The notes below the pieces were generated by a model. The model was not told where the DNA came from. It saw only the letters and a program-made list of their open reading frames with translations, and ran no database searches. Shown here piece by piece: positions 944 through 30,120 of a stretch of DNA of 30,120 nucleotides. The stretch is from IMG/VR virus record IMGVR_UViG_3300045988_111621, positions 1 through 30,120 of that record. One strand, given 5' to 3'. Made by a program: the position numbers and the translations under genes. Every line of letters starts with the position of its first letter. Within the stretch, counting starts at the first letter, position 1. This DNA comes from a virus.

Positions 944-1172
944 TATTGACGATTTACTTACTGAGTATGAAATAGACTATAGTATGTTTACAAATATGGA
1001 TGATAGACTATTAAGTATATATCCAAAATGACTTGAGCTTAATAAGGCAGATAAGACAGTAATCATATTATATGCTGAATATCACAGTTATAGAGAAGTG
1101 GGAAGAATATTAGGAATTAGTCATACCACAATTCAAAGATTTATTAAACAAATAAGAGAGAGATTATGTTAG
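927..1172 (+). CDS. Helix-turn-helix protein resembling sigma-70 region 4 / LuxR-type DNA-binding domain
   Basis: ATG 927 is preceded by an in-frame TAA at 924-926. One in-frame TGA at 1029-1031, stop TAG 1170-1172. Translation ...LYAEYHSYREVGRILGISHTTIQRFIKQIRERLC is a typical region-4 HTH. It overlaps the previous ORF by 17 nt. Confidence 0.5.
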
Positions 1173-1920: not shown

Positions 1921-2281
1921 ATATCTTTATGCAGCAAGATTATTTAATAAAGGGTGGTCCAGAAATAAAGTAAGTGAGGAACTTCAAACTAAATATGGAG
2001 TTGGACAAACTACTGCTGCTAAATATATTAGGGAAGCTTATAAGATTATTGCAGATAAAAATGATAATCTTATAAAGAATTTAAGACATATACAATTAAC
2101 AAGATTGGAAACATTATTGGATATTGCTATTAGTAAAAATGATGTAAGATCTGCTACTGAGGTTATTAAAACAATAAATTCTATGTTTGGATTAAATCAA
2201 CCAGAAATTCAAGTTAATATTCAAAATAATGAATGCCAATTTAAATTTGGAGATCCCATTATAAATGACAAGGATATATAA
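1829..2281 (+). CDS. terS: Terminase small subunit candidate (HTH DNA-binding)
   Basis: It sits immediately upstream of terL and overlaps it by 17 nt. It has an AT-hook-like GRPRK and an HTH-like GWSRNKVSEELQTKYGVGQTTAAKYIREAY. The call rests on position plus motif only. Confidence 0.5.
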   Translation: MKVKNQELPKKTGRPRKEEVKENQIDEQKTKYLYAARLFNKGWSRNKVSEELQTKYGVGQTTAAKYIREAYKIIADKNDNLIKNLRHIQLTRLETLLDIAISKNDVRSATEVIKTINSMFGLNQPEIQVNIQNNECQFKFGDPIINDKDI

Positions 2282-3512
2282 AGGATATAGGCCATTTATG
2301 TACCAATATAAGGTTCATATAGCTATGGCAGATGCTTATAGATCTGGAAGGATATTTACAATTAAAGCTAAACGACAAGTAGGTAAATCTTTCTTAGCTG
2401 AAAATGAATTATTACGATTTGCAATTAACTATCCAAAAACAGTCAATTGTATAGTAGAACCTACTCTTGGACAATCAAGAAAAGTGTTTAAAGAAATAGT
2501 TAATGCTATAGCTGAAGCAGATATTCTTAAACGTAAGAATGAAACTTTGCTTGAATTAGAGTTTAATAATGGCAGTTCTATATTATTTAGATCTGGAGAA
2601 CAAATGGATTCGTTACGAGGATTCTCTGTAAGTGGATTACTTGTATTAGATGAAGCTGCTTACTTAAAAGATGAAGTATTTGAAATTATTAAACCTACTA
2701 CTGATGTGTGGTCTGCTCCAATATTAATTATTAGTACTCCAAGGTTCCGAGAGGGTTTCTTTTATGACTGCTTTACTAAAGGGTTAGATCCGAAATATGA
2801 CAAGTTCTATAAATCATTTGATTGAGCTTTAGAAGATACATCTATGCTTTTAGATAAAGAGAAGTTAGAGATGTATCGACTTACAACCTCAAAAAATAAA
2901 TTTAGAACCGAATATTTAGGGGAATTTGCAGATGATGATGGATGTTTATTTAATAATATAGCTAATTGCATAATTGAGAAAAAACCAGATTATCAGAGTC
3001 TTTATATAGGAATAGACTGGGCTACTGGGAGTGGTAAAGACTATACTTGTGTTACTGCTTTAAATGAATCTGGGCAAATGGTCTTTATAAAGTATTTTAA
3101 CGATAAAACTCCAACAGAGCAAGTTGATTTATTAACAAATATACTAACTGAGTATCAAGGATTTATAAAGATTGTACAAGTTGAACAAAACTCAATTGGT
3201 AGTGTCTTCTATGATATGTTAGTTCAGAAGAATCCGAAAATCAGGATTATACGATTCTTAACTACTAATAAGAGTAAGGCAGATATAGTTAATAAGCTTC
3301 AAGCTGCTTTGGAAAATGAAAAGATAGGATTATTAAAAGATGATAAACTTTTAAATGAGTTAAGACTATATGAAGCTTCATATAATCCAAAAACTGGAAA
3401 TATTAGTTATAATGCTCCATCTGGATTTAATGATGATACAGTAATTTCATTAATGTTAGCCTATGACTCATTAAATACAAACAAAGGACATTATAATATT
3501 AAAATTAAATAG
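2265..3512 (+). CDS. terL: Terminase large subunit
   Basis: Track ORFs 2265-2825 and 2844-3512 share a frame and are separated only by TGA 2823-2825. Walker A KAKRQVGKS, Walker B LLVLDEAAY, coupling motif ISTP. A nuclease-like half follows (YIGIDWATGSGKDY ... FNDDTVISL). Confidence 0.85.
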
Positions 3513-3513
3513 T

Positions 3514-4173
3514 ATGAATGTAGCAACTAAATGGGAAGAAGTATCTTTAAAGAAATTCCAAGCTTTAAATACATTTATTATGAGTGATGTAAAAATGACA
3601 GATTTAGATAGGAGTATCGAGATCTACTCATTACTTACAGATAACCCAGATGAAGCAAGGGATGCTTTATTAAATATGACCGTAGATCAATTATCTGCAG
3701 AACTTAGTAAGATTCATTTTATTGTAAATAAATATAAATCCAAAGTTCCAGAAACTGAGTATGATATTGATGGTAATAAATATACAGTTCAATTAAATCT
3801 CAGAAATATGACTGCTGCTCAGTATATTGATTTTCAGAACTTTTATAAAGATTATGAAAAGAATCAGAAGTATATATTCTTATGCTTTTTAATTCCTAAA
3901 GGAAAGAAGTATAATGAGGGTTATGATGTAATGGAATTGGCAGATGAATTATATGATAAAATTCCAATTACTATTGTTACAGACATTATGGTTTTTTTTT
4001 GCAAATTATTAGAGAGCTTAACCATAGCTACCCTAATCTCTTCAATGCGGGAGATGAAGAAATTGATGAAAAAGGAGAAAGATCCAGTAAAGAAACATCA
4101 ATTACGGAAGAGGATAGTTCAAGCGAGACAAACTCTGAATTTAGTCAAAAATGGAACTGGATTTGTTGAATAG
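3514..4173 (+). CDS. Tail assembly chaperone-like protein, frame-0 product
   Basis: ORF track, 219 aa. It contains a T9 run at 3992-4000. See the frameshift product below. Confidence 0.5.
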   Translation: MNVATKWEEVSLKKFQALNTFIMSDVKMTDLDRSIEIYSLLTDNPDEARDALLNMTVDQLSAELSKIHFIVNKYKSKVPETEYDIDGNKYTVQLNLRNMTAAQYIDFQNFYKDYEKNQKYIFLCFLIPKGKKYNEGYDVMELADELYDKIPITIVTDIMVFFCKLLESLTIATLISSMREMKKLMKKEKDPVKKHQLRKRIVQARQTLNLVKNGTGFVE

Positions 4174-4316
4174 ACAGAGTTAGTGAAGTAACAAGGTTAA
4201 ACTGGCATCAAGTATACGATATGCAAATTCAAGAGTTCTTGAATATTATTTGCTACTTACTTGATAAAGGAAAAGAAGAAAAAAGACAAATAGATCTTTG
4301 AAAAGCTAAACACTAA
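3514..4316 (+). CDS. Putative -1 frameshift (G/GT-like) extended product of the chaperone-like gene
   Basis: The -1 frame is open from the T9 run (G GTT TTT TTT TGC, 3991-4002) to TAA 4314-4316, with two TGA=W. It encodes an acidic Ser/Glu linker, then SEFSQKWNWICWIDRVSEVTRLNWHQVYDMQIQEFLNIICYLLDKGKEEKRQIDLWKAKH. Hand translated. Confidence 0.45.
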
Positions 4317-4349: not shown

Positions 4350-4368
4350 GTGAGTAAAAAGTAGACAC
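4350..4368 (+). promoter_or_regulatory. Phage-specific conserved motif, copy A (GTGAGTAAAAAGTAGACAC), followed by a hairpin
   Basis: One of six copies of (G/T)TGAGTAAAA-N1-4-T(T/A)GACA; in copy B the T(T/A) position reads CT. Hairpin AAATAGGGAG-TAAAT-CTCCCTATTT at 4371-4395, then GTGTTT. The ATG of the next gene is at 4438. Confidence 0.5.
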
Positions 4369-4919: not shown

Positions 4920-7100
4920 ATGGCATTTATACCAAGTAAATTAGGAGTATATAACGCATCAAGGAGTTTTCCTGTTAAATGAAATAATCCTGGATGAGGA
5001 ATTACTGGAGAATATGATTATTGGACTTGGGGAGATGATTATACTGAAGAGGGGCCTTTAGAAGTAACTATACAAGATCCAAGTACTTCTGGATGTACAA
5101 TACAATTTTTATCTCCTACAACAATAACTACTGATTCTTCTACTGTATTTCATTTTTATCCTAGAGGTCTTACTACTGCTTTATTAGGGGAAGATTTACC
5201 AATTAATTTACATAGTAAAGCTCCTGGATATTATCCTGCTAATGGCACCATTAAAGTACCAAATACTGGTGGAGAATATACAGTAGAGTATATATTAAAT
5301 AGATCAGATATTATTAAATGAGATGCAGCAGTTGTTAATGCTACAGCTTTAGTTAATATGGAAGTTCTGGATTGAGATTCTTGCTCTATTAAGTTTAAAG
5401 TTACAGTAAGAGCTAATACTCAATGAAATACTGATTTAACTGCAACTATCCAATTAGGAGCTTATTATGATACTAATAAACTTATTAGTTATAGTTATGG
5501 CTTTAAGATTGAAAAGAGTAATACTCCTGAAGATTTAAAGTTAGTAGTAACTCCTTCTTCTGGAACTTATGGAGCAGCAGCTTTTGTTACTGAAGAATTC
5601 CATTTAAGTACGACTAAAGCAGAAGAAACTATTACATCATTTAATGTTACCTGTCCTCAAGCTAGTAATATTAAAAAGGATATTGTTGATAACTATTTTG
5701 TATTAACTGTTCCAGAGAATAAAACTACTAATAATTTGGAGTTTAGTGCAATGGTTACTGCAACAACTTCTGGGGGTTATAACCTTGAAGCTACAGTTCC
5801 AATTAAACAAGCTGCAACGTATTTAGTGATTCCTAATACTAATTATGAAGTAAGTTGGACTGCATCTACATTAAATATTATGGGAACAGGTTCTAATAAC
5901 TTAGATGATGTTGTATTTAGCATTCCTGTAGGTTGGATTAGTGGACAGAAGTTATCTGTAAATTCTCAAGGTGTAGCAACTATTAGCTTAAATATTGCAG
6001 AAAATTCAGGTTTATCTTCTAGACAAGCAACTATTGGAGTATCTGTTATAAAGAATAGTTCAAGTATTATTAATTTATCTATTAATATTACACAATCTGT
6101 TAAATCTGATATATCTCCTATTTGGAAAGATTATGTTTGGAATGAGATAATCAGTTCAGATTTTATTGAATATCATCTAGATTATGCAGGAGATATGGTT
6201 TATGCTGGCAAGGCTTATAAATATCCAGAAACTGATAGAGTAGAGTTTCTATTAAATAATGTAGCTGAGAATTATCTATCTAATGGTATTATATTTAATA
6301 CTTCTAAAACTATAATATCTCCAGAATATTTGAAACCATTTACTTTGATAACATCTAGTGGAAATGAAAAACCAATTACTTTCTTCAATGACTGGAGTTA
6401 TAAAGATAGAGATCTAACTAAAGGCACTATGTTAAGTGATCCTATTACTGGTTTAGTTGATCCAAGGCAGTATTTAGTATCAAGTTGAATTCTACCAACT
6501 GGAACTGGAGTTATTAATAGATTCTTTTATATAGATGGAGTACAATCTGCTATGGATATTAGTTTAAATTCTGGAATTAATGGATATACATATACAGAAG
6601 ATTTAAGTAATAAATTATGGTCTTGTGGAAGCTATTTAATAGTAGGATTTGTAGAAGGTGGAAATATTAGTGATAGACAGATTAGATATGATATAGATAC
6701 TACAGGTAAAGATTATGTGTTGTATTATACTAATTCAGCAGGTGGATGAGATTCATTACTTGTTGAGGGTAATGTTAAAAAGAATGATGAGATTAAATCT
6801 GAAACATATACTCGTAAGGTATTAAATACATCACAAGAGTTTGCAAGAAATAAGTATTTGAATACTATAACTTCAAGCTGGGTTCTTTATACTGGTTATT
6901 TAAATGATATTCAAGCTTCTAAGATGTTTAATCTAATTGAGAGTACCAAAGTATATTTGCATAATCTTAAAGATAATACTATCACTCCAGTATTGATTAC
7001 AGATACAAATTGTGAATATAAAACTTATACTAATCAAGGTAAAAACAAGTTCTATTATACAATTAATGTAGAAGCTTCTCAAGATACTTATCGTAAATAA
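4920..7100 (+). CDS. Large virion (tail/baseplate-associated) protein, 726 aa, with a BACON-like Ig domain
   Basis: ATG 4920. Track ORFs 5736-6488, 6552-6749 and 6858-7100 share the frame. The gaps were hand translated and contain only TGA (e.g. 4980, 4995), no TAA/TAG. The segment VGWISGQKLSVNSQGVATISLNIAENSGLSSRQATIGVSV looks BACON-like. Confidence 0.7.
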
Positions 7101-7102
7101 TT

Positions 7103-10100
7103 ATGAGAAAGAATATAAAACTATTTATTGCAAATAAAGAGGTTGACTGTAGTGAGGGAATTAGTCTTCCTATGACATATACTGTTGAGGATTTCCAAAA
7201 CCCCACTATAGTCAAGAACTCGTTTAGTAAAACGATTTCTATACCTGGCACAAAGAATAATAATAAGATTTTTGGAGAGATTTATAAGTTAGATAGATTT
7301 CTCCATATAAAAGAAGGTAATTTCTCTGGAGTATATTTTGATCCTTCAAAACGAGTTGATTTTGGAATCTATAATAATGACTATTTAGTTGAATCTGGAT
7401 ATATGCAATTAAATAGTATATCTATAAAACAAGCTGTTATTACTTATAATATTACTTTATATGGAGGATTAGGAGATTTCTTCTATGGACTTAAATATAA
7501 AGAAGATGGTACTATTAGGACTCTTGCTGATTTACAATACTTTGTAACTGATGAAGATGGGAATACACTTCCTGCTGATACTGAACTTAATTTTTATATT
7601 AACAAAGATTTTGTAAATACTTGTTTTGACTGAAGTAAAACGAATGAAGGAAGTCAAATATATGATTATTTGACATTTATTCCAGCATATAATGGTTTAT
7701 ATGAAGATTTTGATAATGAAACTTGTTTAATAAATACTAATGAAAATAGTATATTTCCTACTAGTAAGACAGATTCAGGAGTTACATATACACCTTATAA
7801 TGGGTATGGATTAGCTAAATTAAATAGAGCATATACAGAATGGGAGATGAGAGATCTTAGAAGTTATATGCAAAGGCCAGCTTTAAAATTGAGTAAGTTA
7901 ATTGAAACTATCTGTAGAAAAGAGAATTCTGGATATGATGTAGTATTTGATCCTTCATTTTTTAATTGAAATAATCCGTATTGAAGTAAATCCTTTGTAG
8001 CTTTACCTTTATTATCTAATCTAGTAAGTGACGAAGAAGATGTAACAGAATCTGGCTTTTTAGTAGAAGATAGTAAATATAATTATCAGGTAGGTATAAA
8101 TAAAGGAGAATCTACATCAAGTCCTTTAAAATTATCCATTGCATCACCTGATATTGTTTACGATTCTGGAATAATTGATTTAAGTGAGGCTGGATTTAGA
8201 AAAAGCCTTTCTACAACTTTTTATTTTAAGTTAAAGTTTAATCGAACTGCAGGAAATGTTGGGGATAGATATTTTTTTGGATTTAGAAGGTATTTTAGCT
8301 CCTCTGCTCCTCCTTTTTATTCAGCATATAGAGGATACGCTGATGTTTGGCTAACAATTACTAATGAAGTAGATGATACTATTTATACTTCTGAAATACA
8401 TAGATTTACAAATTCAGGAACCTACTCACATCCTATAGCTAATGGGGTTAATCATTTTGGGTATTTTCAAAATAATGTATTTTATGATACTTCTTCATTA
8501 ACTAATGATTTTGTTATTAATATTACAAATTTTAAAATTCCAATTAATAAAATTAAAATTAAACTTAATGTTGTATGATCTACTGGAAATAGTGTTCGCC
8601 CTACTGGATTATTAAGTGAAGTAATAGAAAGAGGAGAGGATTACCAAGCTATTCCAAAAGGAGATCTTATAGTAGATCTTACTTCTCCCATTGAAATTAC
8701 TACTTCTACAGAGGTACTTCAAAGTAATGCATTATTAACTAAAAAATTATTATTAAAAACAGAACAATCTCCTGCTGATTACTTATTGAGTTATGCAAAA
8801 CTATTTGGGTTATATTTTACAAAAGATATTGATAGTAAAACAATTAGAATATATACTAGAAATAATTTCTTTAAGAATATAATCTCTGATTGGAGCAAGA
8901 GAATAGATTATTCTAAAGATTTCAATGTAAATCCAATATTATTTGATAAGAAGTGATATAGAATGAGTTCTGAAGGTCCAGAAACTTATTTTTATAAAAA
9001 ATACAATAAGGAATATTCTATATTATATGGTCAACAAAGATTAAATACTGGTTATAATTTTAATTCTGAAACAACTGAACTGTATAGTGATAATATATAT
9101 GAAAATATAGTTTCTGCAAGATGGAGAAATAAATATTTTAGAAATTTTTACAATTCTTCTTCCCTTGTAGTTCCTGCATTTATGAATGATAATATTACCT
9201 ATACATTATTTAATAATAGCACTACTGAACTTAAGACTATAGATCAAGAGTTATACGGAGCTAATTTTATAGATCCCTCTAAAACCACAGAATGATATAA
9301 AATCGCAGGTAATGATATATTTGCCAAAAATGTATTTTTCTCAATTGATGGTAATGAGGAATCTTTAGAGGATATCTCTCAATCCCTAGTATTCTTTAAC
9401 GGTAATGTTCCTTTAACTGATGTAAAAGGAAATGAAGTAACATATTGAATTACAGATGATCTTACAGAAATGAACATATTAAATGATCAGGAAATGTGTT
9501 ATATATCTACTAAAAGTGAGAAAGATATTAGGGGGAATAAAATTGCTATAAAGAGAACTGTATTACCTCAATTTACAAGGTATACCGTTTCGTCCTCTAA
9601 TGTTACTGCTTCTTGAGATTTTGGATTACCACAAGAGATTTATATTGATGATATAACTTATAATATCGGAAGTACTATTTATAGTAGATTCTGAAGTGAA
9701 TTTTATAATGATCAATTTGATGTAAATACTAAAAAAGTTACCTGCTTTGTAAGATTAGATGATTTAGATGTTAAGTATGATTTACTTAGACAGTTCTATT
9801 ATTTTGAAGATTCTTACTGGATACTTAATAAGATTGATGCTTATGATATTAATTCAGATTCTACAGTTAGATGTGAATTTATTAAAGTTCAAGATATTAA
9901 TAGTTATTTAGCTGGAGTTCAAAATCTAGGTGAATACATATCATTTGATGATTCAGATCCAGTTGTAGATTATAAAGCTGGGACTAAAAAGATTACAGTT
10001 ACTTCTAATATTCCTTGAGAATTAGGATGGTATAGTCCAAATGAAATTGTAAGTATTACACCTGAATCTGGGCAACCTGGAGAAACAGAATTGACAGTTA

Positions 10101-10462
10101 CATATAATGAGAATACTACATATGACCAAAGGAGTTTCTATTTTAGTCTTTATAAACAAGGAAGTATAAATGGCCCTCAATGTATGTTTACTCAAACTCC
10201 AGACCCAAATAAAGCTATTCTTATTACAGGAAAGCTTCAAACTTCTACTGGAGGTATTCCTTCTGGCGTTAATCAGATTCTAACTGAAAATGATAATTTC
10301 TTAAATGTCACTTATATGAGAGATGATGGAAGTTATAGAATATATGCTCAAAATGGAGTTCAATTTTTATTTAGAGTATCTGACGGACCAACAGGAACAA
10401 TTAAATATACAGAGAATTTAACACTAACAGAAGATACTGTTAAAAACGTAACTATAAACTAA
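7103..10462 (+). CDS. Very large virion (tail tip/baseplate) protein, 1119 aa, with a C-terminal BACON-like domain
   Basis: Track ORFs 7103-7633, 7670-7969, 8963-9295 and 10091-10462 all share one frame. Gaps 7634-7669, 7970-8962 and 9296-10090 were hand translated and contain at least 10 TGA but no TAA/TAG. C-terminal KITVTSNIPWELGWYSPNEIVSITPESGQPGETELTVTYNENTTYDQRSFYFSL matches the BACON pattern. Confidence 0.7.
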
Positions 10463-10463
10463 T

Positions 10464-12797
10464 ATGGCTGAAGAAATTAAAAAAGTAATTAGTGTAGATA
10501 CTAAAACCAGTTCAAAGTCGATCAAGCAGCTACGAGAAGAAGTAGCTGGCTTGACGGCTGAACTTGAAGATCTTGAGATTGGTAGTACTGACTATACTAA
10601 AAAGCTTGAAGAACTTGTTAATGTTCAAAATAAGTTAGGTGTTGCTACAGAATCTATGCAAGGTAAAACTGTAAATGCAGTTAAGGCGTTTGACAGTATC
10701 AATCAAGTAGCAGGAGGTTTAGCTGGAGGAGTTTCAGCTGTTAGTGCAGCATTCACTTTATTTGGAAAAGATACAGAGAATCTTCAAAAAACTATGGTTA
10801 AATTGCAAGCAGCAATTGCTATAGTTCAGGGAATTGGAGGATTAAAAGGTTTAGGTGAAGGTATTCTTAATGGAGTAAAATCATTTAAAGCCTTATCTGT
10901 AGCAATGGGTGGTGCTACGGCTGCAACTGGAGGATTATCTGTAGCAATGGGTGTGCTACGGTCTGCAATTATATCTACAGGAATTGGGGCTTTAGTTGTA
11001 GCTCTTGGTATGTTAATAGATTTTGCAATTAAAGCAGCATCAGGAATTGATGATTTAAAAATTAGTATTTCTGGTTTAAAAGATATAACTGATCAATGAG
11101 GAACAAGTTACGCCAGAGCTAATACTGAAATTGCAGAATTGGAGAGACAAAGAGAGAGAGATTTAGCTGCTGGTAAAAAAAATGAAATACAAATTTGGAA
11201 AGATTATGCTGAAGCATTAGGAGATTTAGATGCTGAATTATTTCAACAATTTGGTAGTGTAACTAAAGCATATTCTGATTCATTTACTAATATACTTAAA
11301 AGTAATAAATACTTCAAAAAAGAATTTAAGAAATCTGGATATGAAACTTGGGAAGATTATTCCGAAGCAATACAATGAGGATTAAAGAATAGTTCTAATG
11401 AAGTTGATTTCTTTTTAAGTAAGTTAAATGAGGATCAAAAAGCAGCTTATGATGAAGCTTCTGGTATTTATAATACATATCTTGAGAAGCGAAATGATTT
11501 AATGCAAAAATCTGCTGAAGCTTATGAAAAAGTTAAGTTAATGGAGATTGCTGCAGAACGTAAGCAGAGAGAAGATGCTAAAGCCCAGTATCTAAAGAAT
11601 ATAGAAGATAGAAAGAAACATAATCAAGATCTGCTTAAAGTTATTAACGATTTCTATGAAGAAAATAGGAAACTTCTTTTAGATGATGAAGCAAGAGAAC
11701 TTGATGAATTAAATAGAAACTACCAGAATCAATTAGATGCACTTAAAGAAGCCTACAATCTCAAATTAATAACAGTTAAAGAATATAATGAGAGATTAAA
11801 GCAGGTAAATGATGCATATAATAAAGAGTGACTAGATAATAATAATGAACGTTATAGGGAAGACTTAGAAAATAGATTGTCTGCATTACAAGAAATGCAG
11901 GATAGGGAATCTCAATTATTTGCAAATAAAGAGGCTGCATTATCTGCAGGTAAATCTGGAAGTTATGAAACTAGAGTTCAACAATTTGGTTCAACTGATT
12001 TCTATCAATCTAGAGAAGATGTTCAAAGACAATATCAAGATACATTAGCTTATAATGAACAGTTATATAATCTTACCAAAGATAGAATTACAAGAGAGAA
12101 TGAATTGATGTCTCAACAGCAAGCTATCTTAGATGAGCAATATAACAATAAGCTGATAACTGAACAAGAATATGCTAATCAATCTCAAGCAATCAAATTA
12201 CAGCAAGAAGCTAATGATATAGCTTTATCAGAAGCAGCTAATGCAAGAGAAGAAGCAGATCTTCAAGCATTTAAAGATAGACAAGCTAAAAAGCAACAGG
12301 CTATTCAAGCTACTATGAATGTAGCTTCTTCTTTAAGTGGAGCTTTAGCTAATGTATTTAAACAAGAAGCTAGTGATGACAAGAAGAGTGAGAAACAGAG
12401 GGAGAAATCATTTAAAGTTTATAAAGCATTAGCTACTACTCAAGCTATTATTGATACTATCAGTTCTGCCCAAGGTGCATATAAAGCTATGGTAGGTATT
12501 CCGATTGTAGGTCCTATCCTTGCTCCTATTGCTGCTGCTACTGCTGTTATAGCTGGTATTGCTAATGTAAAAGCTATCCAGAATGAACAATTACCTTCAT
12601 CTGGAGGTTCTGGAAGTGATGCAGGAACTACTGCTCCTGCTGCTTTAAATACTGCTCCTGTAGAATATACTCGAAACTTACTTGGCAATAAAGAGACTGA
12701 TGAATTGAATCAACCTGTTAAATGTTATGTAGTTGAGAGTGATATTACTAACGCTCAAACTAAAGTTGCAGTTACAGAATCAAATGCAAGTTTCTAA
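10464..12797 (+). CDS. Tape-measure-like protein, 777 aa
   Basis: Four same-frame track ORFs are joined by TGA at 11097, 11376 and 11829. The protein has long coiled-coil Glu/Lys/Gln-rich stretches plus Gly/Ala-rich hydrophobic segments (GGLAGGVSAVSAAF, GIGALVVALGML, VGPILAPIAAATAVIAGI). Confidence 0.65.
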
Positions 12798-12798: not shown

Positions 12799-12818
12799 GT
12801 GAGTAAAATTTCTGACAC
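12799..12818 (+). promoter_or_regulatory. Conserved motif, copy B (GTGAGTAAAATTTCTGACAC)
   Basis: It starts 2 nt after the TAA of the tape-measure-like gene and runs directly into the 12818-12861 palindrome. Confidence 0.45.
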
Positions 12819-12894: not shown

Positions 12895-12913
12895 TTGAGT
12901 AAAAACTTGACAT
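12895..12913 (+). promoter_or_regulatory. Conserved motif, copy C (TTGAGTAAAAACTTGACAT), upstream of the capsid module
   Basis: This is the second tandem copy in the 12798-12991 intergenic region. No hairpin follows it. The ATG of the protease gene is at 12992. Confidence 0.5.
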
Positions 12914-12991: not shown

Positions 12992-13585
12992 ATGGAAAAA
13001 ATGTATAATGATCTTCCATTATATCAAGCAATTATTGCTGATGATTGTGATGGAATAGAGTTCGTAGCATTGACCAGTAAACCTGCAACCCAAGTTAATT
13101 GGCTTGCTTTTGGGGAATCTCAGAAGTTCTCGATGGATGAAGAAAAACATATAGTTACTTCTTGTTTAATGGTATGTGATATACCTATATTTAGACGGGA
13201 TAGTAAAAACGGAGAATATTATATTCAATATGATAAAGAAACTCTCCGTTTAATGGCTGAAAAAATGATGTATGATAAGAGAACTACTGATGTAAATATT
13301 GAACATTTGGAAGATTCGGTAATTCCTGGAATAATTCTTCAAGAGCTATATATTAAAGATATAGATAGAGGAATTAATCCAGTTGAATTTGCTGATTGTC
13401 CAGATGGTTCATTATTTGCTACTTATAAAGTGAATAATCCTGTTATATGGGATGCAATTAAAGCTGGCAAGTTTAAAGGATTCTCTATTGAGGGATTGTT
13501 TACTTTAGAAAGACAATCTGATGAATATGAGGAACTTAAAGAGATTCAAAAAATGTTGAGAAAAATAAAAAGAGTTAAACATTAA
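12992..13585 (+). CDS. Prohead protease candidate (XkdF-like)
   Basis: ORF track, 197 aa. It lies directly upstream of the scaffold and major capsid genes. HIVTSCLMVCDIPIFRRD ... DVNIEH ... WDAIKAGKFKGFSIEG resembles the XkdF-type family by eye. Confidence 0.55.
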   Translation: MEKMYNDLPLYQAIIADDCDGIEFVALTSKPATQVNWLAFGESQKFSMDEEKHIVTSCLMVCDIPIFRRDSKNGEYYIQYDKETLRLMAEKMMYDKRTTDVNIEHLEDSVIPGIILQELYIKDIDRGINPVEFADCPDGSLFATYKVNNPVIWDAIKAGKFKGFSIEGLFTLERQSDEYEELKEIQKMLRKIKRVKH

Positions 13586-13591
13586 TTAATT

Positions 13592-14197
13592 ATGAGTAAA
13601 TTCACAAAAATTAAACTTGAGTTAGCTAAGATGCTTGCAAAGTTCAGTGATGTTAAAACTGACAAGGCTGTGCTTACTTGGGATTCAGATGAGGATCTGA
13701 GAGAAGGTATGGATGTTTATGTAGCTGATGAAAATGGCGAATATGCACCTGCTGCTGATGATGAGTATGTTACCGAAGATGGCAAAACGATTGTTGTTAA
13801 AGACGGTAAAGTAGAGTCCATTACTGATCCTAAAGCTGAAGTTGATCCAGAAGAGGGTATGAGAACTGTTGAGGTTGATGCTGCTTGTGGAACTAAGAGA
13901 GTAAAAGCTGAGGAAGTTGCTGATCCTGCTGTTGAAACAGACGGTGTTAAAGAAACTGAGACTGATGCAATCGACGCTATTCATCGCGAAATTAATGAGC
14001 TTTACGATATTGTAGATAAGCTTGTTAAGAAAGTAGCAGAACTTGAAGGAAAATCAGAAGCTACTGAAAAGACTGTAGAAAAAATGAGTAAGATGAGTGC
14101 TGCTTTTTCAGCAGAGGAAACACTTGAAAATAAAACAACTGCTCCTATAAGTGGGATAGCAGAAATAGATAGAAAGCTTAAAAACTTTATTGGTTAA
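13592..14197 (+). CDS. Scaffolding protein candidate
   Basis: 201 aa, very acidic (Asp/Glu-rich) with coiled-coil-like ends. It sits between the protease and the major capsid gene. Confidence 0.55.
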   Translation: MSKFTKIKLELAKMLAKFSDVKTDKAVLTWDSDEDLREGMDVYVADENGEYAPAADDEYVTEDGKTIVVKDGKVESITDPKAEVDPEEGMRTVEVDAACGTKRVKAEEVADPAVETDGVKETETDAIDAIHREINELYDIVDKLVKKVAELEGKSEATEKTVEKMSKMSAAFSAEETLENKTTAPISGIAEIDRKLKNFIG

Positions 14198-14218
14198 TTT
14201 ATAAAATTTTAAATAATT

Positions 14219-15124
14219 ATGGCAAATAGTCCTGTAATGACAACGCTTCCTGCTTATGTGGAGCAAAGACGTCTCCCTCTTATTAAGGAAGCTGTTTTAA
14301 AAGCTAAGAGTGCAAGTTTATTTAATCTTCAGACAGATATTAAAACTGATGCTGCTCTTAACCTGTTATCTACCGATGTTCAGTTCGGTGATGGTCTTAC
14401 TTGTGGTTGGGATGAGGCTGGAACTCAGACTCTTTCTCAGAGAATTCTTAAGACTGGTAATATTAAGATTAATATGGCATATTGCGATAAGGCTATGCTG
14501 AAATACTGGACTCAGTATGCAGTTAAGGTAGCCGCTGGTCAGAAGACTCTTCCTTTTGAAGAGGATTTCGTAAATGCTGTTGTAGAGAACGTAAAAGAGG
14601 CTATTGAGGTAGCTATCTGGCAGGGTGATACGGCTTCAGAAACTAATAACTTGAAGTATTTTGATGGTCTGCTTAAGATTCTTGCTGCTGATAATGGTAC
14701 TGTAGATGTAGAAATTGCTGGAGAATCTGCCTATACTGATATTATGGCAGTTTATAATGCAATTCCTGAGAAGGTTCTTGATGGTGCTTCGATTCTTGTT
14801 GGTGCCGATATGTTCCGTAAGTTCGTAAATGAACTTGTTGAGAAGAACTATTTCCACTATAGCGGAGAGAGCCTTAATGGTGAGATTTATCTTCCTGGTT
14901 CACAGGTTAAGGTTATTGCTGTTAATGGTCTTAATGGAACTGGTAAGATTGTTGCTGGTCAGTTAGACAAGAACTTCTTCTATGGTGTAGATATGATGAA
15001 CGACGAAGAGAAATTCGAATTGTGGTATTCACAGGATTTCCGCGAGTTCAGATTAGCTATTGAATTTAACGCTGGTGTACAAGTTGCTTTCCCTGACGAA
15101 GTAGTATTAGGTGCCAAGGCTTAA
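14219..15124 (+). CDS. Major capsid protein (HK97-fold type)
   Basis: 301 aa, in the position after the scaffold gene. Codon usage is distinct and GC-richer (GGT/GCT/CTT rich), as expected for a highly expressed gene. No TGA; all four Trp are TGG. Confidence 0.7.
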   Translation: MANSPVMTTLPAYVEQRRLPLIKEAVLKAKSASLFNLQTDIKTDAALNLLSTDVQFGDGLTCGWDEAGTQTLSQRILKTGNIKINMAYCDKAMLKYWTQYAVKVAAGQKTLPFEEDFVNAVVENVKEAIEVAIWQGDTASETNNLKYFDGLLKILAADNGTVDVEIAGESAYTDIMAVYNAIPEKVLDGASILVGADMFRKFVNELVEKNYFHYSGESLNGEIYLPGSQVKVIAVNGLNGTGKIVAGQLDKNFFYGVDMMNDEEKFELWYSQDFREFRLAIEFNAGVQVAFPDEVVLGAKA

Positions 15125-15164
15125 TTTCAATAGATTTTATTAACTTCTAAATGATATTGAAATT

Positions 15165-15689
15165 ATGGCTTGTTTAATAACTATCGCAGGAATCACACTT
15201 GATTGCCAACCTTCGTTAGGTGGTATCAAACAGGTTTGGATTACCCAGTATGCAGATGTTAAAAGTGTAACGGTTGATCCTGAGAGCAATATGATTTCAG
15301 CTATTACTCTTGAGTCTTCAGCTAAATGGTATAACTACCAATTTAGAAAGGCTACTGGTTCTCTAACCTCAACTTTAAATGTAGATGAAAGTGCTGGTGT
15401 TAATTATGTAAGTAATGAGCTTGCTCTTGTATTTACAAAGATGGAAACAGCAAAACGAGTAGAGATTGCAGCTTTATCAATTGGTCAGCTTGCAGTTGTT
15501 GTTGAAGATAGCAATGGTAAGTATTGGTTCTTAGGTAAAGATGATTATGTAAGCGCTTCCGCTGGTACGGGTGTTACTGGTACTGCTAAAGGTGATCAGA
15601 ATGCTTATACTCTGACACTTTCAACAGATTCAGATTCTTATCCTTATGAGTTATCTGCAGAAGCTATCCAAAGCGTTGTAGGTGCTTAA
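15165..15689 (+). CDS. Abundant virion protein, major tail (tube) protein candidate
   Basis: 174 aa with the same GC-richer codon usage as the capsid gene. Gly/Ser/Thr-rich beta-type sequence. A strong terminator follows. Confidence 0.4.
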   Translation: MACLITIAGITLDCQPSLGGIKQVWITQYADVKSVTVDPESNMISAITLESSAKWYNYQFRKATGSLTSTLNVDESAGVNYVSNELALVFTKMETAKRVEIAALSIGQLAVVVEDSNGKYWFLGKDDYVSASAGTGVTGTAKGDQNAYTLTLSTDSDSYPYELSAEAIQSVVGA

Positions 15690-22896: not shown

Positions 22897-22916
22897 GTGA
22901 GTAAAAAACTTGACAT
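22897..22916 (+). promoter_or_regulatory. Conserved motif, copy D (GTGAGTAAAAAACTTGACAT), followed by a hairpin
   Basis: Hairpin TTAAAGGAG-GCTTAGGT-CTCCTTTAA at 22916-22941, then TTATTTT. The next ATG is at 23018. Confidence 0.5.
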
Positions 22917-23017
22917 TAAAGGAGGCTTAGGTCTCCTTTAATTATTTTAATACATTAGTAAATTGGTTTATATTTTAAGAAAAAGATATGTAAAACTAAT
23001 GTAAATTGCTGTAAAAT

Positions 23018-25163: not shown

Positions 25164-25589
25164 ATGACGTATTTTGAATTAATAAACAATTTAAAAGCTT
25201 GTGCTCTTGAAGAACCCAATATTAATTTTGTAGGAAGTAAGGATATATATGAACTTAATAGTATCCCAACTATTGAATATAATGTATTTTATATAACTCC
25301 AAATACATTTAATATGGATGAGGATACTATTACTTACTCTTTAAATCTCTATTTTATAGCAAGATGGGATGAGACTGATAATAATCAGCTTGAAGAGCAA
25401 TCAGCTGGAATATTAGCATTAACTAATATAATTAACCGATTTAATAACCAATATCCAGAAGTTGATATTTCTTATCCTTTAATTTTTACTCCATTTTATC
25501 AGAAGTTCAAAGATATTTGTACTGGAGTATTTGTTAGAGTCGATTTAGCTGTAGACAATATTATTGGAGTATGTGAAGACAGTATGTAA
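25164..25589 (+). CDS. Hypothetical protein
   Basis: Start taken at ATG 25164 (MTYFELINNLKA...), just after the upstream stop 25160-25162, rather than the overlapping track start 25062. Confidence 0.5.
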   Translation: MTYFELINNLKACALEEPNINFVGSKDIYELNSIPTIEYNVFYITPNTFNMDEDTITYSLNLYFIARWDETDNNQLEEQSAGILALTNIINRFNNQYPEVDISYPLIFTPFYQKFKDICTGVFVRVDLAVDNIIGVCEDSM

Positions 25590-26242
25590 TGGAAAATAAA
25601 TTAAACTGGTTTGGAAAGGTATTAGAATGAGTAGATAAATATGGACTGTGGAAAATAATTAAAGGTGGATTTGGATTTATATTTATTTCTTATGTAATAA
25701 TTATAAGTACTAATCCAGGAATAATATATGATAAAGTTGTAAGTTATATAGAAACAGTTCATAATACTAATCAAGTAATACGACAAGAAGCGGATCTTAA
25801 GGTTAGATATATCCTTAAAGACCTTTTAAATGATACGAATGCAGATAGAGCTTGAGTTATTGAGTATCATAATGGCACTTCAGGATTAGGAGGATTACCA
25901 TTCACTTATGGAATTATGAATAGTGAAGAAACAGAACCTGGAGTTGCTCCAGTTTCAAGTCACTATAAAGACTTCCTATTATCTGATTATTTATTTATAT
26001 TGGAAACATCTAAAAAAGGAGGATGATTTGGAGATGTTGAAGATATAAAGGAATTAGATAGAAGAATGTATTATGCATTTAAATCTAATGATGTTAATAA
26101 GATTGCAATATTCTATTTAAAATCAGAAGATAGAGATATTGGAATTTTAGGCTTATCTTATTGTGATAATGAGATGCCAGTTGATACTTGAGTAAAACTA
26201 AGAGATGCAGGAATTAAAGTAAGTATAATTTTAAATAAATAA
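25589..26242 (+). CDS. N-terminally membrane-anchored protein of unknown function at the head of the lysis cassette
   Basis: ATG 25589 overlaps the upstream TAA. Four in-frame TGA (first at 25628-25630), TAA 26240-26242. Sequence MENKLNWFGKVLEWVDKYGLWKIIKGGFGFIFISYVIIISTN..., then a ~170-aa soluble domain. It is absent from the standard-code track. Confidence 0.55.
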
Positions 26243-26245
26243 GTT

Positions 26246-26407
26246 ATGAAATATTGGATGAAATATTTAATAGCAATAGTAATTATAATCTTAGTATTTT
26301 TAATGGTAAAAGTAATTCCATTTTGTATTACATTAGCACTCATAGCACTTGGTGCAGGATGTCATTTATTTTACCGTTATACTATGCTTAAAGATATTAT
26401 TAAATAA
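26246..26407 (+). CDS. Holin candidate (53 aa, two transmembrane helices)
   Basis: MKYWMKYLIAIVIIILVFLMVKVIPFCITLALIALGAGCHLFYRYTMLKDIIK. It lies immediately upstream of the endolysin and is translationally coupled to it (TAATG). Confidence 0.55.
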   Translation: MKYWMKYLIAIVIIILVFLMVKVIPFCITLALIALGAGCHLFYRYTMLKDIIK

Positions 26408-26859
26408 TGAAATATTTTACTATTAGTGAATTAACAAGATCTGATACAGCTTCTATTAAGAAGATAGATAATACTCCAAATAAAGAGATTACTGAACACC
26501 TTATAGAGTTAGTCGAGAAACTTTTAGACCCATTAAGAAGTGCTTGGGCAGAGTATTGTGATGTTAATCGGTTGGGGAATCCAGCAATAAGTGTGAATTC
26601 AGGTTATAGATGTAATGAGCTTAATAAAGCTGTAGGAGGATCTTTGACATCTGCTCACCTAACAGGATATGCAGCAGATATAATTCCAAGTAACGGCCAA
26701 ATGAAAGAATTTCAGGTTTGGATTACTGAAGCTATTGAGAAGTATGATTTTGATCAACTTATTTATGAGAAACCTAGAAATGGAATAGCTAGTTGAATTC
26801 ATTTAGGACTGAAGAATAAAGAGGGTTTGCAGAGAAGACAGAAATTTACTATTATATAA
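26407..26859 (+). CDS. Endolysin, zinc peptidase M15 family (VanY / L-Ala-D-Glu peptidase-like)
   Basis: SGYRCNELNKAVGGSLTSAHLTGYAAD (H-x6-D zinc ligands), then ...GIAS-TGA(26794-26796)-IHLG. The family has W-[VI]-H carrying the third zinc ligand. Stop TAA at 26857-26859. Confidence 0.75.
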
Positions 26860-27428
26860 TGTTTTACTATTGTTATAAAATAATTTTAACTGCAGGTACA
26901 TTAAGAGGCAAGTATTATATTGGGAAAAGGATTTATAGAGGTAAAGACATAAATAAAGATCCATATAAAGGATCAGGAAGGATTATTACTAATTATTACA
27001 AAAGATTCCCTAATGCATACCAAAAGATTATTTTGGCAACTTGCACTAATGCAGATGAATTATCTAAATTAGAATACAAACTAATTGGAGATAAATGGGA
27101 CACTGATCCTATGTGTTTAAATTTGAAACCTGGAGGAGAAGGAGGCAATTACGGAGTCAAATTTAATTCTGAATGAAAGAAGAAACTGTCTAATTCTAAT
27201 AAGGGAAAGAAACATAATTGCCCAGAATCTTGAAGAGTTAAAGTAGATGCTCATAACAAACAAAGATGTCGTAAAGTAGCTCAGTATGATTTAGATGGTA
27301 ATTTTATTCAAGAGTATGAAAGTTGCACAGAAGCAGCCAAATCTGTAGGAACTGATAGAGGAGCTATTAGTAGAGTATGTGGTGGATTAGCAAATACAGC
27401 TAAAGGATTCAAGTGAAGATATGTTTAA
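26859..27428 (+). CDS. GIY-YIG homing endonuclease
   Basis: YCYKII...GKYYIGKR...YKGSG...NLKPGGEG. The ORF continues through TGA 27174, 27231 and 27414 into NUMOD3/IENR1-like KLSNSNKGKKH and AAKSVGTDRGAISRVCGG. TAA at 27426-27428. Confidence 0.7.
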
Positions 27429-27430: not shown

Positions 27431-27470
27431 AAAAAGAAATAGGAGGGTATAAACCCTCCTATTTTCATTT
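27431..27470. terminator. Bidirectional terminator between convergent gene blocks
   Basis: AGGAGGG-TATAAA-CCCTCCT at 27441-27460, flanked by an A-rich tract upstream and ATTTTCATTT downstream. Confidence 0.65.
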
Positions 27471-27612
27471 ATTCCATTATTTCAAATAATTTATCATCTT
27501 CTTTAGGTATTAAATCTCCTGTTTGTAAGTCTACTAAAAACTTACTATTTTCTGGTATTACATATACATAATACACTCCATTTATACATACTTTATAGGT
27601 TTGGTATTTCAT
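27469..27612 (-). CDS. Hypothetical small protein (47 aa)
   Basis: Hand translated: MKYQTYKVCINGVYYVYVIPENSKFLVDLQTGDLIPKEDDKLFEIME. Its start lies 1 nt from the upstream stop. Confidence 0.4.
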   Translation of the reverse strand: MKYQTYKVCINGVYYVYVIPENSKFLVDLQTGDLIPKEDDKLFEIME

Positions 27613-27613
27613 A

Positions 27614-27754
27614 TTAATCAGTATATGTTGCATTAGTAATTTCTGGTTTTGGCATTTCTTCTACTTCTTCCCAAACTAAACCTCTATTCTGGTTTTCTAG
27701 TTGAACTATTCTGTATTCTAGTTCTTCAAGCTTTTTAAATAAATGATCATCCAT
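27614..27754 (-). CDS. Hypothetical small protein (46 aa, coiled-coil-like)
   Basis: Hand translated: MDDHLFKKLEELEYRIVQLENQNRGLVWEEVEEMPKPEITNATYTD. Confidence 0.4.
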   Translation of the reverse strand: MDDHLFKKLEELEYRIVQLENQNRGLVWEEVEEMPKPEITNATYTD

Positions 27755-27756
27755 AA

Positions 27757-27918
27757 TTAATCAAATTTAGAAATAAACATATAATCTTTATTTTTTAATA
27801 CTTTGTCTATAATATCACCAAATCTTTTAGTAGCCTCTTTACATTCGAGCATTCATCTATCTAACTCTTTAATATACTCTTCTGTTTGTTTAATTGTTTC
27901 TTTAATATCATTTTCCAT
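27757..27918 (-). CDS. Hypothetical small protein (53 aa)
   Basis: Hand translated: MENDIKETIKQTEEYIKELDRWMLECKEATKRFGDIIDKVLKNKDYMFISKFD, with one TGA=W at 27853-27855. Motif copy F lies about 20 nt upstream. Confidence 0.4.
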
Positions 27919-27935
27919 AATTAAAATATTTTAAT

Positions 27936-27990
27936 AAATGTCTATTTTTTACTCAACTAATGTATATAGATAAAAATAAAAATAGACATA
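27936..27990. repeat. Left arm of an imperfect ~50-bp inverted repeat bracketing the helicase gene
   Basis: AAATGTCTATTTTTTACTCAACTAATGTATATAGATAAAAATAAAAATAGACATA. The reverse complement of 29731-29786 reads AAGGTGTCAAATTTTTACTCACTTGATGTGTATAGATAAAATAAAAATAGACAAT. The core TATAGATAAAA(A)TAAAAATAGACA is identical apart from a 1-nt indel. Confidence 0.65.
27938..27956 (-). promoter_or_regulatory. Conserved motif, copy F (minus strand: TTGAGTAAAAAATAGACAT)
   Basis: This is the reverse complement of 27938-27956. It lies about 20 nt upstream of minus-strand ATG 27918. Confidence 0.5.
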
Positions 27991-29730: not shown

Positions 29731-29786
29731 TAATTGTCTATTTTTATTTTATCTATACACATCAAGTGAGTAAAAATTTGACACCT
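29731..29786. repeat. Right arm of the inverted repeat bracketing the helicase gene
   Basis: See the left arm. The inner half (minus strand TAAAAATAGACAAT) lies about 25 nt upstream of helicase ATG 29709. The outer half is motif copy E. Confidence 0.65.
29766..29784 (+). promoter_or_regulatory. Conserved motif, copy E (GTGAGTAAAAATTTGACAC), followed by a hairpin
   Basis: Hairpin GGCAGG-ATTTTCA-CCTGCC at 29801-29819. Confidence 0.45.
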
Positions 29787-29856
29787 TAATGTTAAAAAGT
29801 GGCAGGATTTTCACCTGCCTAGAAGTAGTAGAATTACTTGTTTTATTTTGATACTA

Positions 29857-29888
29857 CAAAGATAATACATAAAAATTAAATTTCCAAA
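29857..29888 (-). promoter_or_regulatory. Bacteroides-type promoter (-33 TTTG / -7 TAnnTTTG), leftward, copy 1
   Basis: Minus strand: TTTG (29885-29888), 20-nt spacer, TATCTTTG (29857-29864). It points towards the helicase gene. Confidence 0.55.
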
Positions 29889-29945
29889 TAATTTAGATAT
29901 TATTTTTAATAAAAATTCATTTTTATGATTCTTATTTTGATAGTA

Positions 29946-29977
29946 CAAATATACAATATTATTTTTAAATTTCCAAA
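29946..29977 (-). promoter_or_regulatory. Bacteroides-type promoter, leftward, copy 2 (tandem duplicate)
   Basis: Minus strand: TTTG (29974-29977), 20-nt spacer, TATATTTG (29946-29953). The flanks (TTTGATA[CG]TACAAA ... AAATTTCCAAATAATTT) repeat those of copy 1. Confidence 0.55.
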
Positions 29978-30025
29978 TAATTTTAAGAAAAAAAATAAAA
30001 AAAATATGAAAAAGTTGTCAAAAAA

Positions 30026-30057
30026 TTTGGAAATTGAATAAAAATGTATTATCTTTG
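30026..30057 (+). promoter_or_regulatory. Bacteroides-type promoter, rightward
   Basis: TTTG (30026-30029), 20-nt spacer, TATCTTTG (30050-30057). It is an inverted copy of the leftward cassette. An ATG at 30102 follows. Confidence 0.55.
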
Positions 30058-30101
30058 TAGTACAATAATAAACAAATATTAACTTATTAAATAATAAAAT
30101 T

Positions 30102-30120
30102 ATGAAAAAAATAAATAAAA
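30102..30120 (+). CDS. Possible 5' end of a CDS running off the right edge (MKKINK...)
   Basis: ATG 30102 lies about 45 nt downstream of the rightward promoter. Only 6 codons are visible. Confidence 0.25.

Follow-up and report, generated by a model that had tools for sequence, protein, structure and literature searches.

Phages in which a stop codon has become a sense codon were described by Borges et al. (10.1101/2021.08.26.457843). In the available text of that study, TGA is reassigned to tryptophan in the Agate and Jade phages, and TAG to glutamine in the crAss-like, Lak, Garnet, Amethyst and Topaz phages. The fraction of genes carrying the recoded codon is given there as 26-71% on standard-code hosts and approximately 90% on natively recoded hosts. 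The code-change machinery is typically a suppressor tRNA, tRNA-Sup(UCA), sometimes accompanied by RF1 and TrpRS, and a suppressor was detected in just 35% of the genomes that use code 4 (TGA as tryptophan). The small clades that appear in this text are 22-34 kb with TAG-recoded representatives, whereas the phage analysed here is 30 kb and TGA-recoded. It is represented by IMG/VR record IMGVR_UViG_3300045988_111621, positions 1 to 30,120, and this whole stretch is referred to below as the window. Our subject is the in-frame TGA codons of its lysis genes, above all the single TGA of the endolysin gene, and of its large terminase gene, terL. A first reading made from the letters of the window (the original prediction) had proposed that these codons gate lysis and packaging.

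Recoding as a timer is so far a hypothesis, and the UGA-decoding factor is known in only a minority of code-4 phages. The present clade is a compact test bed for both questions: it combines a 30-kb tRNA-free genome, a standard-code sister and a single-domain endolysin with one fixed TGA, and dozens of natural variants alternate between TGA and TGG at the same tryptophan sites. The genuine signal that we observed in it is an avoidance of TGA. The endolysin adds a caution: a TGA beside a catalytic residue need signify no more than a tryptophan that is conserved.

TGA as a tryptophan codon and its avoidance

The window has 30,120 bp and a GC content of 29.5%. Its end runs contiguously into its start in relatives, many of which are themselves contigs of 29-32 kb; it is thus the complete, circularly permuted genome of a tailed phage. 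This gut-type phage reads TGA as tryptophan. Long open reading frames (ORFs), nearly all on the plus strand, cover 33.8 kb when TGA is taken as sense, as compared to 25.4 kb under the standard code. Gene calling under code 4 gave approximately 34 genes, and 34 of the 34 called genes stop at TAA or TAG, TGA being the terminator of none. Tail proteins of 726, 1119 and 777 amino acids are whole under code 4 only, and an independent public gene call for a near-identical contig returned the same protein lengths. Tryptophan is encoded by 42 TGA and 62 TGG codons (approximately 40% TGA), and TGA is present in approximately 44% of the genes. An example of a peptide that spans a TGA site is NGIASWIHLGLK.

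Opposite the TGA codons, standard-code homologues have tryptophan 61 times, tyrosine 12, leucine 7, glycine 6 and phenylalanine 5 times, and the residue profile opposite the TGG codons of the window is the same. Judged by these alignments, TGA is tryptophan in the window; code 25, in which TGA is glycine, is ruled out because the TGA columns align to Trp and not to Gly. Leaky readthrough is likewise ruled out as the decoding route, since ten TGA lie within a single protein of 1119 amino acids. The full-length endolysin, TerL, the tail proteins and the membrane-anchored protein encoded at 25589-26242 all need UGA to be decoded as tryptophan. We looked for a positional bias of TGA along genes, and for a neighbouring-base bias around TGA as a clue to the decoding mechanism, and found neither. 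A nucleotide search of the GenBank phage collection gave no match to 25 kb of the window, and the capsid protein had no match in this collection either.

Among the relatives, IMGVR_UViG_3300029905_000019 (loci L067 and L091) is a syntenic sister of 30,128 bp and 27% GC with a capsid 66% identical to that of the window. Its homologous genes contain no in-frame TGA and 39 TGG codons, at least two of its ORFs stop at TGA, and the genome yielded no tRNA. The early region differs and includes no helicase-like gene. The presence of a syntenic sister that uses the standard code indicates that recoding is derived within the lineage, and this path matches the route from low GC through loss of TGA to recoding in the available text of Borges et al. 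Another relative, L066, is recoded. A different phage, L092 (10.4 kb, from Logan SRR32105344), has homologues of the 25589-26242 protein and of the endolysin, and here TGA outnumbers TGG by 41 to 8 (84% of Trp codons) and occurs in 16 of 19 genes. Phages of this gene-sharing network thus differ widely in how far they are recoded. As a side observation, a distant relative with a capsid 48% identical and 30% GC was found on a Bacteroidaceae contig (L089, CAVCAD010000156.1) of a metagenome-assembled genome (MAG). Its ORF coverage was 1.20 with TAG as sense, 1.04 with TGA as sense and 0.92 under the standard code; within the same capsid family, it may represent a lineage in which TAG is recoded.

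Homologues of every gene in the window were collected from approximately 60 related loci and duplicates were removed, leaving up to 36 unique relatives per gene. For conserved Trp columns we determined the share of TGA and compared it with the share of codons ending in A at conserved Lys/Glu/Gln (K/E/Q) columns, the latter serving as a same-gene proxy for mutation pressure. Over all genes, the TGA share was 0.33 against an A-ending share of 0.67 (P = 3e-13, an optimistic value because the sequences are related and the genes mosaic). Avoidance was found in the helicase-like gene (TGA share 0.02, A-ending share 0.74, P = 0.002), the head module (0.02 and 0.54, P = 1e-4), the portal group (0.16 and 0.60, P = 0.002), the terL group (0.26 and 0.66, P = 0.006) and the large tail proteins (0.40 and 0.71, P = 2e-4). 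No avoidance was seen in the tape measure gene (0.69 and 0.71), the HNH endonuclease gene (0.80 and 0.73) or the gene for a 109-amino-acid membrane protein near the left end of the window (0.94 and 0.82). The same was true of the 25589-26242 gene (0.75 and 0.80) and the endolysin gene (0.50 and 0.59), in both of which the difference was not significant.

In the capsid gene, TGA was found at none of four Trp columns across 36 sequences. Among K/E/Q codons this gene favours those that end in G (A-ending share 0.34), suggesting selection at the level of translation. Three A-rich families, namely those of the helicase-like gene, the putative holin gene and the first plus-strand ORF, are free of TGA, a combination that fits genes translated while UGA decoding is unavailable or unreliable. 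At the opposite end, three of the four Trp codons of the 109-amino-acid membrane protein are TGA and near-fixed, with TGA/TGG counts of 12/0, 12/0 and 10/2 in relatives.

The endolysin TGA, the lysis genes and terL

The endolysin belongs to the Peptidase_M15_3/LAS zinc peptidases. It scored 53.9 bits against PF08291 (Peptidase_M15_3; cutoff 23.2) and matched phrog_894, 'endolysin', at 2.8e-30 over residues 1-145. Its profile matched 1LBU, the Streptomyces albus D-Ala-D-Ala carboxypeptidase, with E = 9.5e-11 over the H...D ligand region, where H84 and D91 align to the ligands H154 and D161 of that enzyme. A profile of 15 homologues also matched Sonic hedgehog N-domains (E ∼0.004-0.03), and this alignment sets H84, D91, E121 and H132 on the zinc ligands and catalytic Glu of hedgehog. 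H84, D91, E121, W130 and H132 are invariant across 15 diverse homologues, in which they form H-x6-D and W-x-H motifs.

Two statements of the original prediction about this gene stand, namely that its single TGA directly precedes Ile-His, and that this His is the third zinc ligand of M15 peptidases. Codon 130 is followed by ATT CAT (I131 and H132), and by homology the invariant H132, aligned together with E121 to the E...H of hedgehog, is the third ligand. The accompanying argument, that a TGA read as stop would cost the enzyme a ligand, holds in so far as H132 lies beyond codon 130; but H132 is only 19 residues from the C-terminus, and a stop at any of the three tryptophans, Trp47, Trp105 or Trp130, would delete it. 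The other two, W47 (26545) and W105 (26719), are TGG in the window. The W130 column is TGG in all standard-code homologues and TGA in all recoded relatives, within the motif W-[IVLMYF]-H. Since Trp130 is invariant in the W-x-H motif, the adjacency of TGA and His132 is a property of the enzyme family and not of recoding, and a TGA at W130 is what any Trp-to-TGA drift would yield. Moreover, with TGA use near 40%, chance alone would place one or more TGA in ∼78% of genes with three Trp codons.

The original prediction also turned on how the TGA positions behave in relatives, and the picture there was mixed. Codon 130 of the endolysin is always TGA in recoded relatives, but TGA positions are in part scattered: in endolysin relatives TGA also encodes other tryptophans, namely W105, a new Trp114 and one lying between H84 and D91; in L092 four of four endolysin Trp codons are TGA. 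The endolysins of this clade have a nine-residue insertion after W47. Their nearest counterparts from cultured phages are those of Bacteroides fragilis phages (48-52% identity), followed by those of crAss-like phages, and Prevotella phages also match.

The membrane-anchored protein of 217 amino acids (25589-26242) carries four in-frame TGA as predicted, at 25628 (codon 14), 25853 (codon 89), 26024 (codon 146) and 26189 (codon 201), in addition to TGG at codons 7 and 21. Its homologues are confined to this phage group (21 clusters); it has no Pfam domain and one weak PHROG match of unknown function. An AlphaFold (AF2) model built with 19 homologues reached a mean confidence (pLDDT) of 83 and comprises an N-terminal transmembrane helix, a long helix and then an alpha/beta domain. 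The top Foldseek matches of this model were GAF domains (E ∼1e-6, target TM-score up to 0.77), and by this prediction the protein has a membrane-anchored, sensor-like (GAF) fold. Neither the Pfam and PHROG searches nor the fold comparison made it recognisable as a holin, antiholin or spanin. GAF homologues lie directly upstream of the lysin gene even where the lysin is of another type (DUF5675 in L093 and in the sister genome); in L092, the GAF homologue lies on the opposite strand, approximately 2 kb from the M15_3 gene. Hence the membrane anchor and the conserved adjacency to a lysin survive of its description as a lysis-cassette protein, and membership of a lysis family does not: as judged from gene order, its link to lysis is positional, with a conserved position.

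The 53-amino-acid ORF between the GAF and endolysin genes had no Pfam or PHROG match and is a putative holin by its size, topology and position. It has TGA at neither of its two Trp columns in 14 unique relatives, with 0.89 of its K/E/Q codons A-ending. Binomial per-gene tests of TGA use in the window gave P = 0.23 for the GAF gene, and P = 1 for both the endolysin gene and terL. Taken as a trio, the lysis genes had a TGA share of 0.53 at Trp columns, as compared to 0.30 in all other genes (P = 0.23). The GAF gene considered by itself differed from the other families (TGA share 0.75, nominal P = 0.014, which fails correction for approximately 30 families). Its high share reflects missing avoidance rather than enrichment, as it equals the A-ending expectation of 0.80. 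The proposal that TGA codons gate the lysis cassette thus finds no backing in a trio that is not enriched and a putative holin that is TGA-free.

In terL, the only TGA lies between the ATPase motifs and the nuclease domain, as had been reported. Codon 187 follows the Walker A (35-42), Walker B (125-130) and STP (157-159) motifs and precedes Terminase_6C (248-401), yet it falls within the Pfam Terminase_6N match (37-231). The site is polymorphic, with 11 TGA and 3 TGG among unique relatives, and other terL Trp codons also alternate (TGA in 4 of 14 at W149 and 2 of 14 at W252). Together with the binomial result, this argues against reading the placement of the terL TGA as a sign of gating. More generally, TGA positions track conserved tryptophans with no departure from chance, and the timer is not supported by TGA position.

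Decoder, host and the weighing of rival readings

ARAGORN detected a tRNA neither in the window nor in any of 45 related loci, an Rfam E-value scan found no tRNA, and a relaxed ARAGORN run for a non-canonical suppressor tRNA returned weak matches inside coding sequence only. Pfam and PHROG scans of the window proteins gave no match to RF1, a release factor, TrpRS or another synthetase. With no decoder found in the phage, the proposed timer is one without an identified clock, and we infer that the UGA decoder is supplied from outside the genome.

A Shine-Dalgarno sequence is missing in front of approximately 29 of 31 genes. This, together with the nearest relatives of the endolysin, which are those of Bacteroides fragilis and crAss-like phages, suggests that the host is probably a standard-code, Shine-Dalgarno-independent Gram-negative bacterium of the Bacteroidota. 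The recoded fraction of genes lies within the range given in the available text of Borges et al. for standard-code hosts and well under that for natively recoded hosts. A search of genome contigs with the capsid returned matches on short MAG contigs (Azospirillum sp. CAG:239 and a Bacteroidaceae bacterium); at 47-48% identity, and on contigs of that length, we discarded them as evidence of a prophage, and they do not identify the host.

A further set of phages bears on the decoder. A 2.26-kb tail-fibre segment (L174, 12086-14344) is 90-97% identical at the nucleotide level between stand-alone variants of the small phage (L018/L059 and L064) and contigs of 85-171 kb (L174-L181). The 85-171 kb contigs comprise IMGVR_UViG_3300045988_141593, _156017, _171613, _180998, _159576, _168178, _173136 and _165959. 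These large phages are heavily TGA-recoded (TGA share 0.67-0.73), and the shared segment indicates a shared host, co-infection and recombination between two unrelated types of recoded phage. A fragment of the large phage had trivial matches of 40-55 nucleotides only when compared with GenBank phages. One large record, the 148.6-kb IMGVR_UViG_3300045988_175865, was considered as a prophage in a host contig; this was dropped, as large and small phage meet in it at the 2.3-kb fibre segment, and it is a probable assembly chimera of the two.

We give a probability of roughly 60% to the reading that the TGA distribution reflects drift of Trp codons under AT pressure, filtered by selection against a TGA that is poorly or conditionally decoded. 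TGA sites would be set by where tryptophan residues lie; AT mutation pressure would push TGG towards TGA, and selection would oppose the poorly or conditionally decoded codon. Such selection would act strongly on the helicase-like gene, which is transcribed divergently, on the putative holin and on the head proteins, which are abundant; it would be intermediate in terL, the portal and the tail proteins, and absent in low-copy or dispensable genes such as those for the GAF protein, homing endonucleases, tape measure and a fibre-like protein. TGA positions would then not be selected for gating, nor would the lysis cassette as a whole be specially gated, and the avoidance would reflect decoding efficiency or timing. 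Several points weigh against this reading. The sequences are related and the genes mosaic, so that the column-based P values overstate independence. A-ending codon use and TGA use correlate weakly across families (rho = 0.18), and a stronger correlation (rho = 0.53, P = 0.009) appears only once the helicase-like gene, the first plus-strand ORF and the putative holin are excluded post hoc. Expression level and timing are judged from gene identity and orientation. As to the source of UGA decoding, the mechanism is incomplete. Finally, W130 is TGA in every recoded relative across four to five divergent C-terminal types, and all unique homologues of terL (13), the endolysin (16) and the GAF gene (22) hold at least one TGA. 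Gating predicts this fixation and this minimum of one TGA per homologue, which are also compatible with neutrality: the neutral chance of a fixed TGA is 0.6-0.75 to the fifth power, or ∼0.08-0.24.

These last observations also speak for a translational gate, in which early genes would be TGA-free in a standard-code host and UGA suppression arising in mid-infection would first permit full-length TerL, tail proteins, GAF protein and endolysin, and would in this way prevent premature packaging and lysis. Such a gate would further explain why the helicase-like gene and the first plus-strand ORF shun TGA despite their A-rich codons, and it accords with a GAF gene that is nominally among the most TGA-rich families, with a host that is probably a standard-code member of the Bacteroidota, and with a standard-code sister lineage that fits the evolutionary path in the available text of Borges et al. 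The lysis genes share one operon with the TGA-poor portal gene, so that translation is the only obvious level at which they could be controlled differentially. Yet searches of the complete genome and of the 45 related loci turned up no suppressor tRNA, and family scans gave no RF1 or TrpRS match. The putative holin, holins being the usual lysis clock, is free of TGA, and a purely temporal gate does not predict that the late head genes are so too. The sigma-70 region-4/helix-turn-helix (HTH) regulator, with TGA in 7 of 11 relatives, and other genes immediately downstream of the divergent control region do carry TGA. As set out above, the lysis trio is not enriched, the nominal P value of the GAF gene fails correction for multiple families, its TGA use matches the neutral expectation, and TGA positions are polymorphic. 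What remains of the timer in the original prediction is a TGA-recoded phage whose helicase-like gene shuns TGA, as would fit a conditional or costly decoding of UGA of the kind in the published model, set against TGA-free late head genes and uninformative positions; we regard the gate as unlikely.

A host that natively uses code 4, with UGA as tryptophan and no RF2, would make TGA an ordinary codon, and the TGA-free genes would be a matter of ancestry or of recent acquisition from standard-code phages. The failure to find a tRNA or other decoding factor in the phage is what this view expects, as is the efficient decoding needed for ten TGA in one essential protein, and other phages that share genes with this clade use TGA at neutral frequencies (84% in L092, 67-73% in the 85-171 kb phages). 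TGA in the window, in contrast, is used at half the neutral expectation, and the helicase-like and head genes stay TGA-free though relatives switch between codons ending in A and in G at more than half of the conserved K/E/Q columns of these genes. The peptidoglycan endolysin excludes wall-less Mollicutes, and the alignment of TGA to Trp rather than Gly excludes the code-25 Absconditabacteria and Gracilibacteria. The nearest relatives of the endolysin come from Bacteroides phages, the sister genome uses TGA as stop, and we know of no walled, Shine-Dalgarno-independent gut bacterium with code 4. We therefore consider a native code-4 host distinctly improbable. Dependence of the small phage on UGA-to-Trp decoding by co-resident large TGA-recoded phages, or by a prophage, appears more doubtful again. 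The shared fibre segment implies the co-infection that this would require, and the small phage is without tRNA; but no tRNA was found in the 21.5-kb pieces of the large phages searched, obligate co-infection would be costly for a phage with a full set of structural genes, and the idea is purely inferential.

With more than 40 essential TGA, no suppressor tRNA, release factor or synthetase found in its own genome, and a host that is probably a standard-code member of the Bacteroidota, the phage could obtain UGA-to-Trp decoding from an undescribed source, a suggestion that we make tentatively and with low confidence. Candidates would be a protein- or host-tRNA-based mechanism encoded by one of the many unannotated phage genes, or the decoding of the large TGA-recoded phages, used in trans by the small phage, which exchanges tail-fibre DNA with them. 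If such a source exists, the phage and its syntenic standard-code sister would be the smallest tractable system for how phages switch the genetic code of a cell, and it could show whether the code switch times lysis.

Further features and comparison with known systems

The features of the window are collected in the table below. Family scans further identified genes for fibre-like proteins, an HNH endonuclease and the portal, as well as small regulators that include the sigma-70 region-4/HTH protein. The helicase-like gene is the sole large gene on the minus strand; the protein had no Pfam or PHROG match, its assignment as helicase-like follows from its motifs, and its divergent orientation suggests early expression.

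Features of the window and their positions (homology-based residue assignments and putative functions are marked as such)
Feature	Position	Strand	Remarks
Sigma-70 region-4/HTH protein	927-1172		small regulator
Membrane protein, 109 aa	1166-1495	+	several hydrophobic segments; no family match (Pfam/PHROG)
Large terminase, terL	2265-3512	+	identified by Pfam and PHROG
Single TGA of terL	2823-2825	+	codon 187 (Trp187)
Intergenic motif, plus-strand copies	4351-4367, 12800-12816, 12896-12912, 22898-22915, 29767-29783	+	
Two large tail/baseplate proteins and tape measure protein	4920-12797	+	7, 10 and 3 in-frame TGA
Head module	12992-15689	+	protease, scaffold-like protein, major capsid protein, 174-aa virion protein; TGA-free
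Membrane-anchored protein with predicted GAF fold, 217 aa	25589-26242	+	start overlaps stop of upstream gene (TAATG)
Putative holin, 53 aa	26246-26407	+	two hydrophobic segments, charged C-terminus; stop overlaps endolysin ATG
Endolysin, Peptidase_M15_3/LAS zinc peptidase, 150 aa	26407-26859	+	family profiles
Proposed zinc ligand H84	26656-26658	+	by homology
Proposed zinc ligand D91	26677-26679	+	by homology
Proposed catalytic residue E121	26767-26769	+	by homology
Single TGA of the endolysin gene	26794-26796	+	codon 130 (Trp130)
Proposed zinc ligand H132	26800-26802	+	by homology
NUMOD1-domain homing endonuclease	26859-27428	+	three TGA; last gene of operon
Bidirectional terminator	27436-27465		3' of the NUMOD1-domain homing endonuclease gene
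Intergenic motif, minus-strand copy	27939-27955	-	
Helicase-like protein, ∼572-586 aa	27991-29748	-	GxGGTS, DEYH and TATP motifs read directly; TGA-free

A motif of the form TGAGTAAAA(A)-N-TTGACA recurs in the window, its exact core TGAGTAAAA occurring seven times against an expectation of 0.9. Of the copies, six are in gaps between genes, immediately upstream of operons, and in most cases a GC-rich hairpin follows at a distance of a few bases, e.g. at 22915-22942 and 29801-29819. As the phage encodes a sigma-70 region-4/HTH protein, the motif could be a phage-specific promoter or antitermination unit for late transcription; if so, it would constitute a transcriptional timer independent of TGA. 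A further occurrence at 26189 in the GAF gene was considered as an internal promoter that would fix the TGA at that site, and was rejected because the codons that follow are not conserved. The region 29830-30090 holds iteron-like repeats (two copies of AAATTTCCAAATAATTT, two of TTTGATA[CG]TACAAA, and inverted copies of both); this part of the divergent control region, which separates the helicase-like gene from the plus-strand genes, could be an origin or an operator.

Several small ORFs deserve mention. The ORF across the circular junction (30098-30120 joined to 1-217; MKKINKK followed by VGLLIASS...) is one base out of frame at a poly-A run and is a single ORF in relatives (L017: MKKINKILAGLL...); the frame break probably arose as an artefact when the contig ends were assembled or trimmed. 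On the plus strand, an ATG-less ORF at 3960-4316 overlaps the 3' end of the gene at 3514-4173 in another frame and extends 143 nucleotides beyond its stop. It opens at a run of nine T (∼3988-3997) and has two TGA in frame. L017 retains its C-terminal peptide (VSEVTRLNWHQVYDM...), and the ORF resembles the products of programmed frameshifting known from tail assembly chaperones. The overlapping small ORFs 635-943 and 927-1172 jointly resemble a split sigma factor of the extracytoplasmic function (ECF) type: the former has a region-2-like segment kept in the sister genome, and the latter matches the Sigma70_r4 and HTH families. Downstream of the helicase-like gene, three small minus-strand ORFs (27470-27925), the first of which (MENDIKETIK...) has an in-frame TGA, have their own copy of the intergenic motif upstream.

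Among described systems, the endolysin compares best with the M15/LAS endolysins of Bacteroides fragilis siphophages (B124-14, Barc2635 and vB_BfrS_UZM3) and of crAss-like phages. These are likewise single-domain Peptidase_M15_3 proteins, which share 44-52% identity with that of the window across 89-99% of the query and have the H-x6-D ... W-x-H motifs in common with it; in them, the Trp of W-x-H is encoded by TGG and the insertion after W47 is missing. The more remote LAS folds of 1LBU and the Sonic hedgehog N-domain share the ligand pattern, a likeness seen at the level of sequence. The upstream neighbour of the window endolysin, with its predicted GAF fold, is unlike annotated holins and spanins.

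Phages of natively recoded hosts (code-4 Mycoplasma and Spiroplasma; code-25 Absconditabacteria and Gracilibacteria, PMC10746230) likewise use TGA as an amino acid codon. They need no suppressor of their own, and in the available text of Borges et al. TGA occurs in approximately 90% of their genes. The window phage differs in that TGA is under-used, is absent from whole gene classes and specifies Trp rather than Gly, and its peptidoglycan endolysin argues against a wall-less host. From the recoded phages in that text, it is set apart by the absence of a detected suppressor tRNA, RF1 or TrpRS, by head genes that are free of TGA, and by lysis genes that are not preferentially recoded. It resembles them in being a low-GC gut-type phage with a recoded stop standing in frame within structural genes and genes for lysis, in never using TGA as a terminator, in keeping at least one replication-type gene in the standard code, in having a close standard-code relative, and in a recoded gene fraction within the standard-code-host range. 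By these likenesses, the phage is a genuine new addition to the TGA-recoded phages, a class already known.

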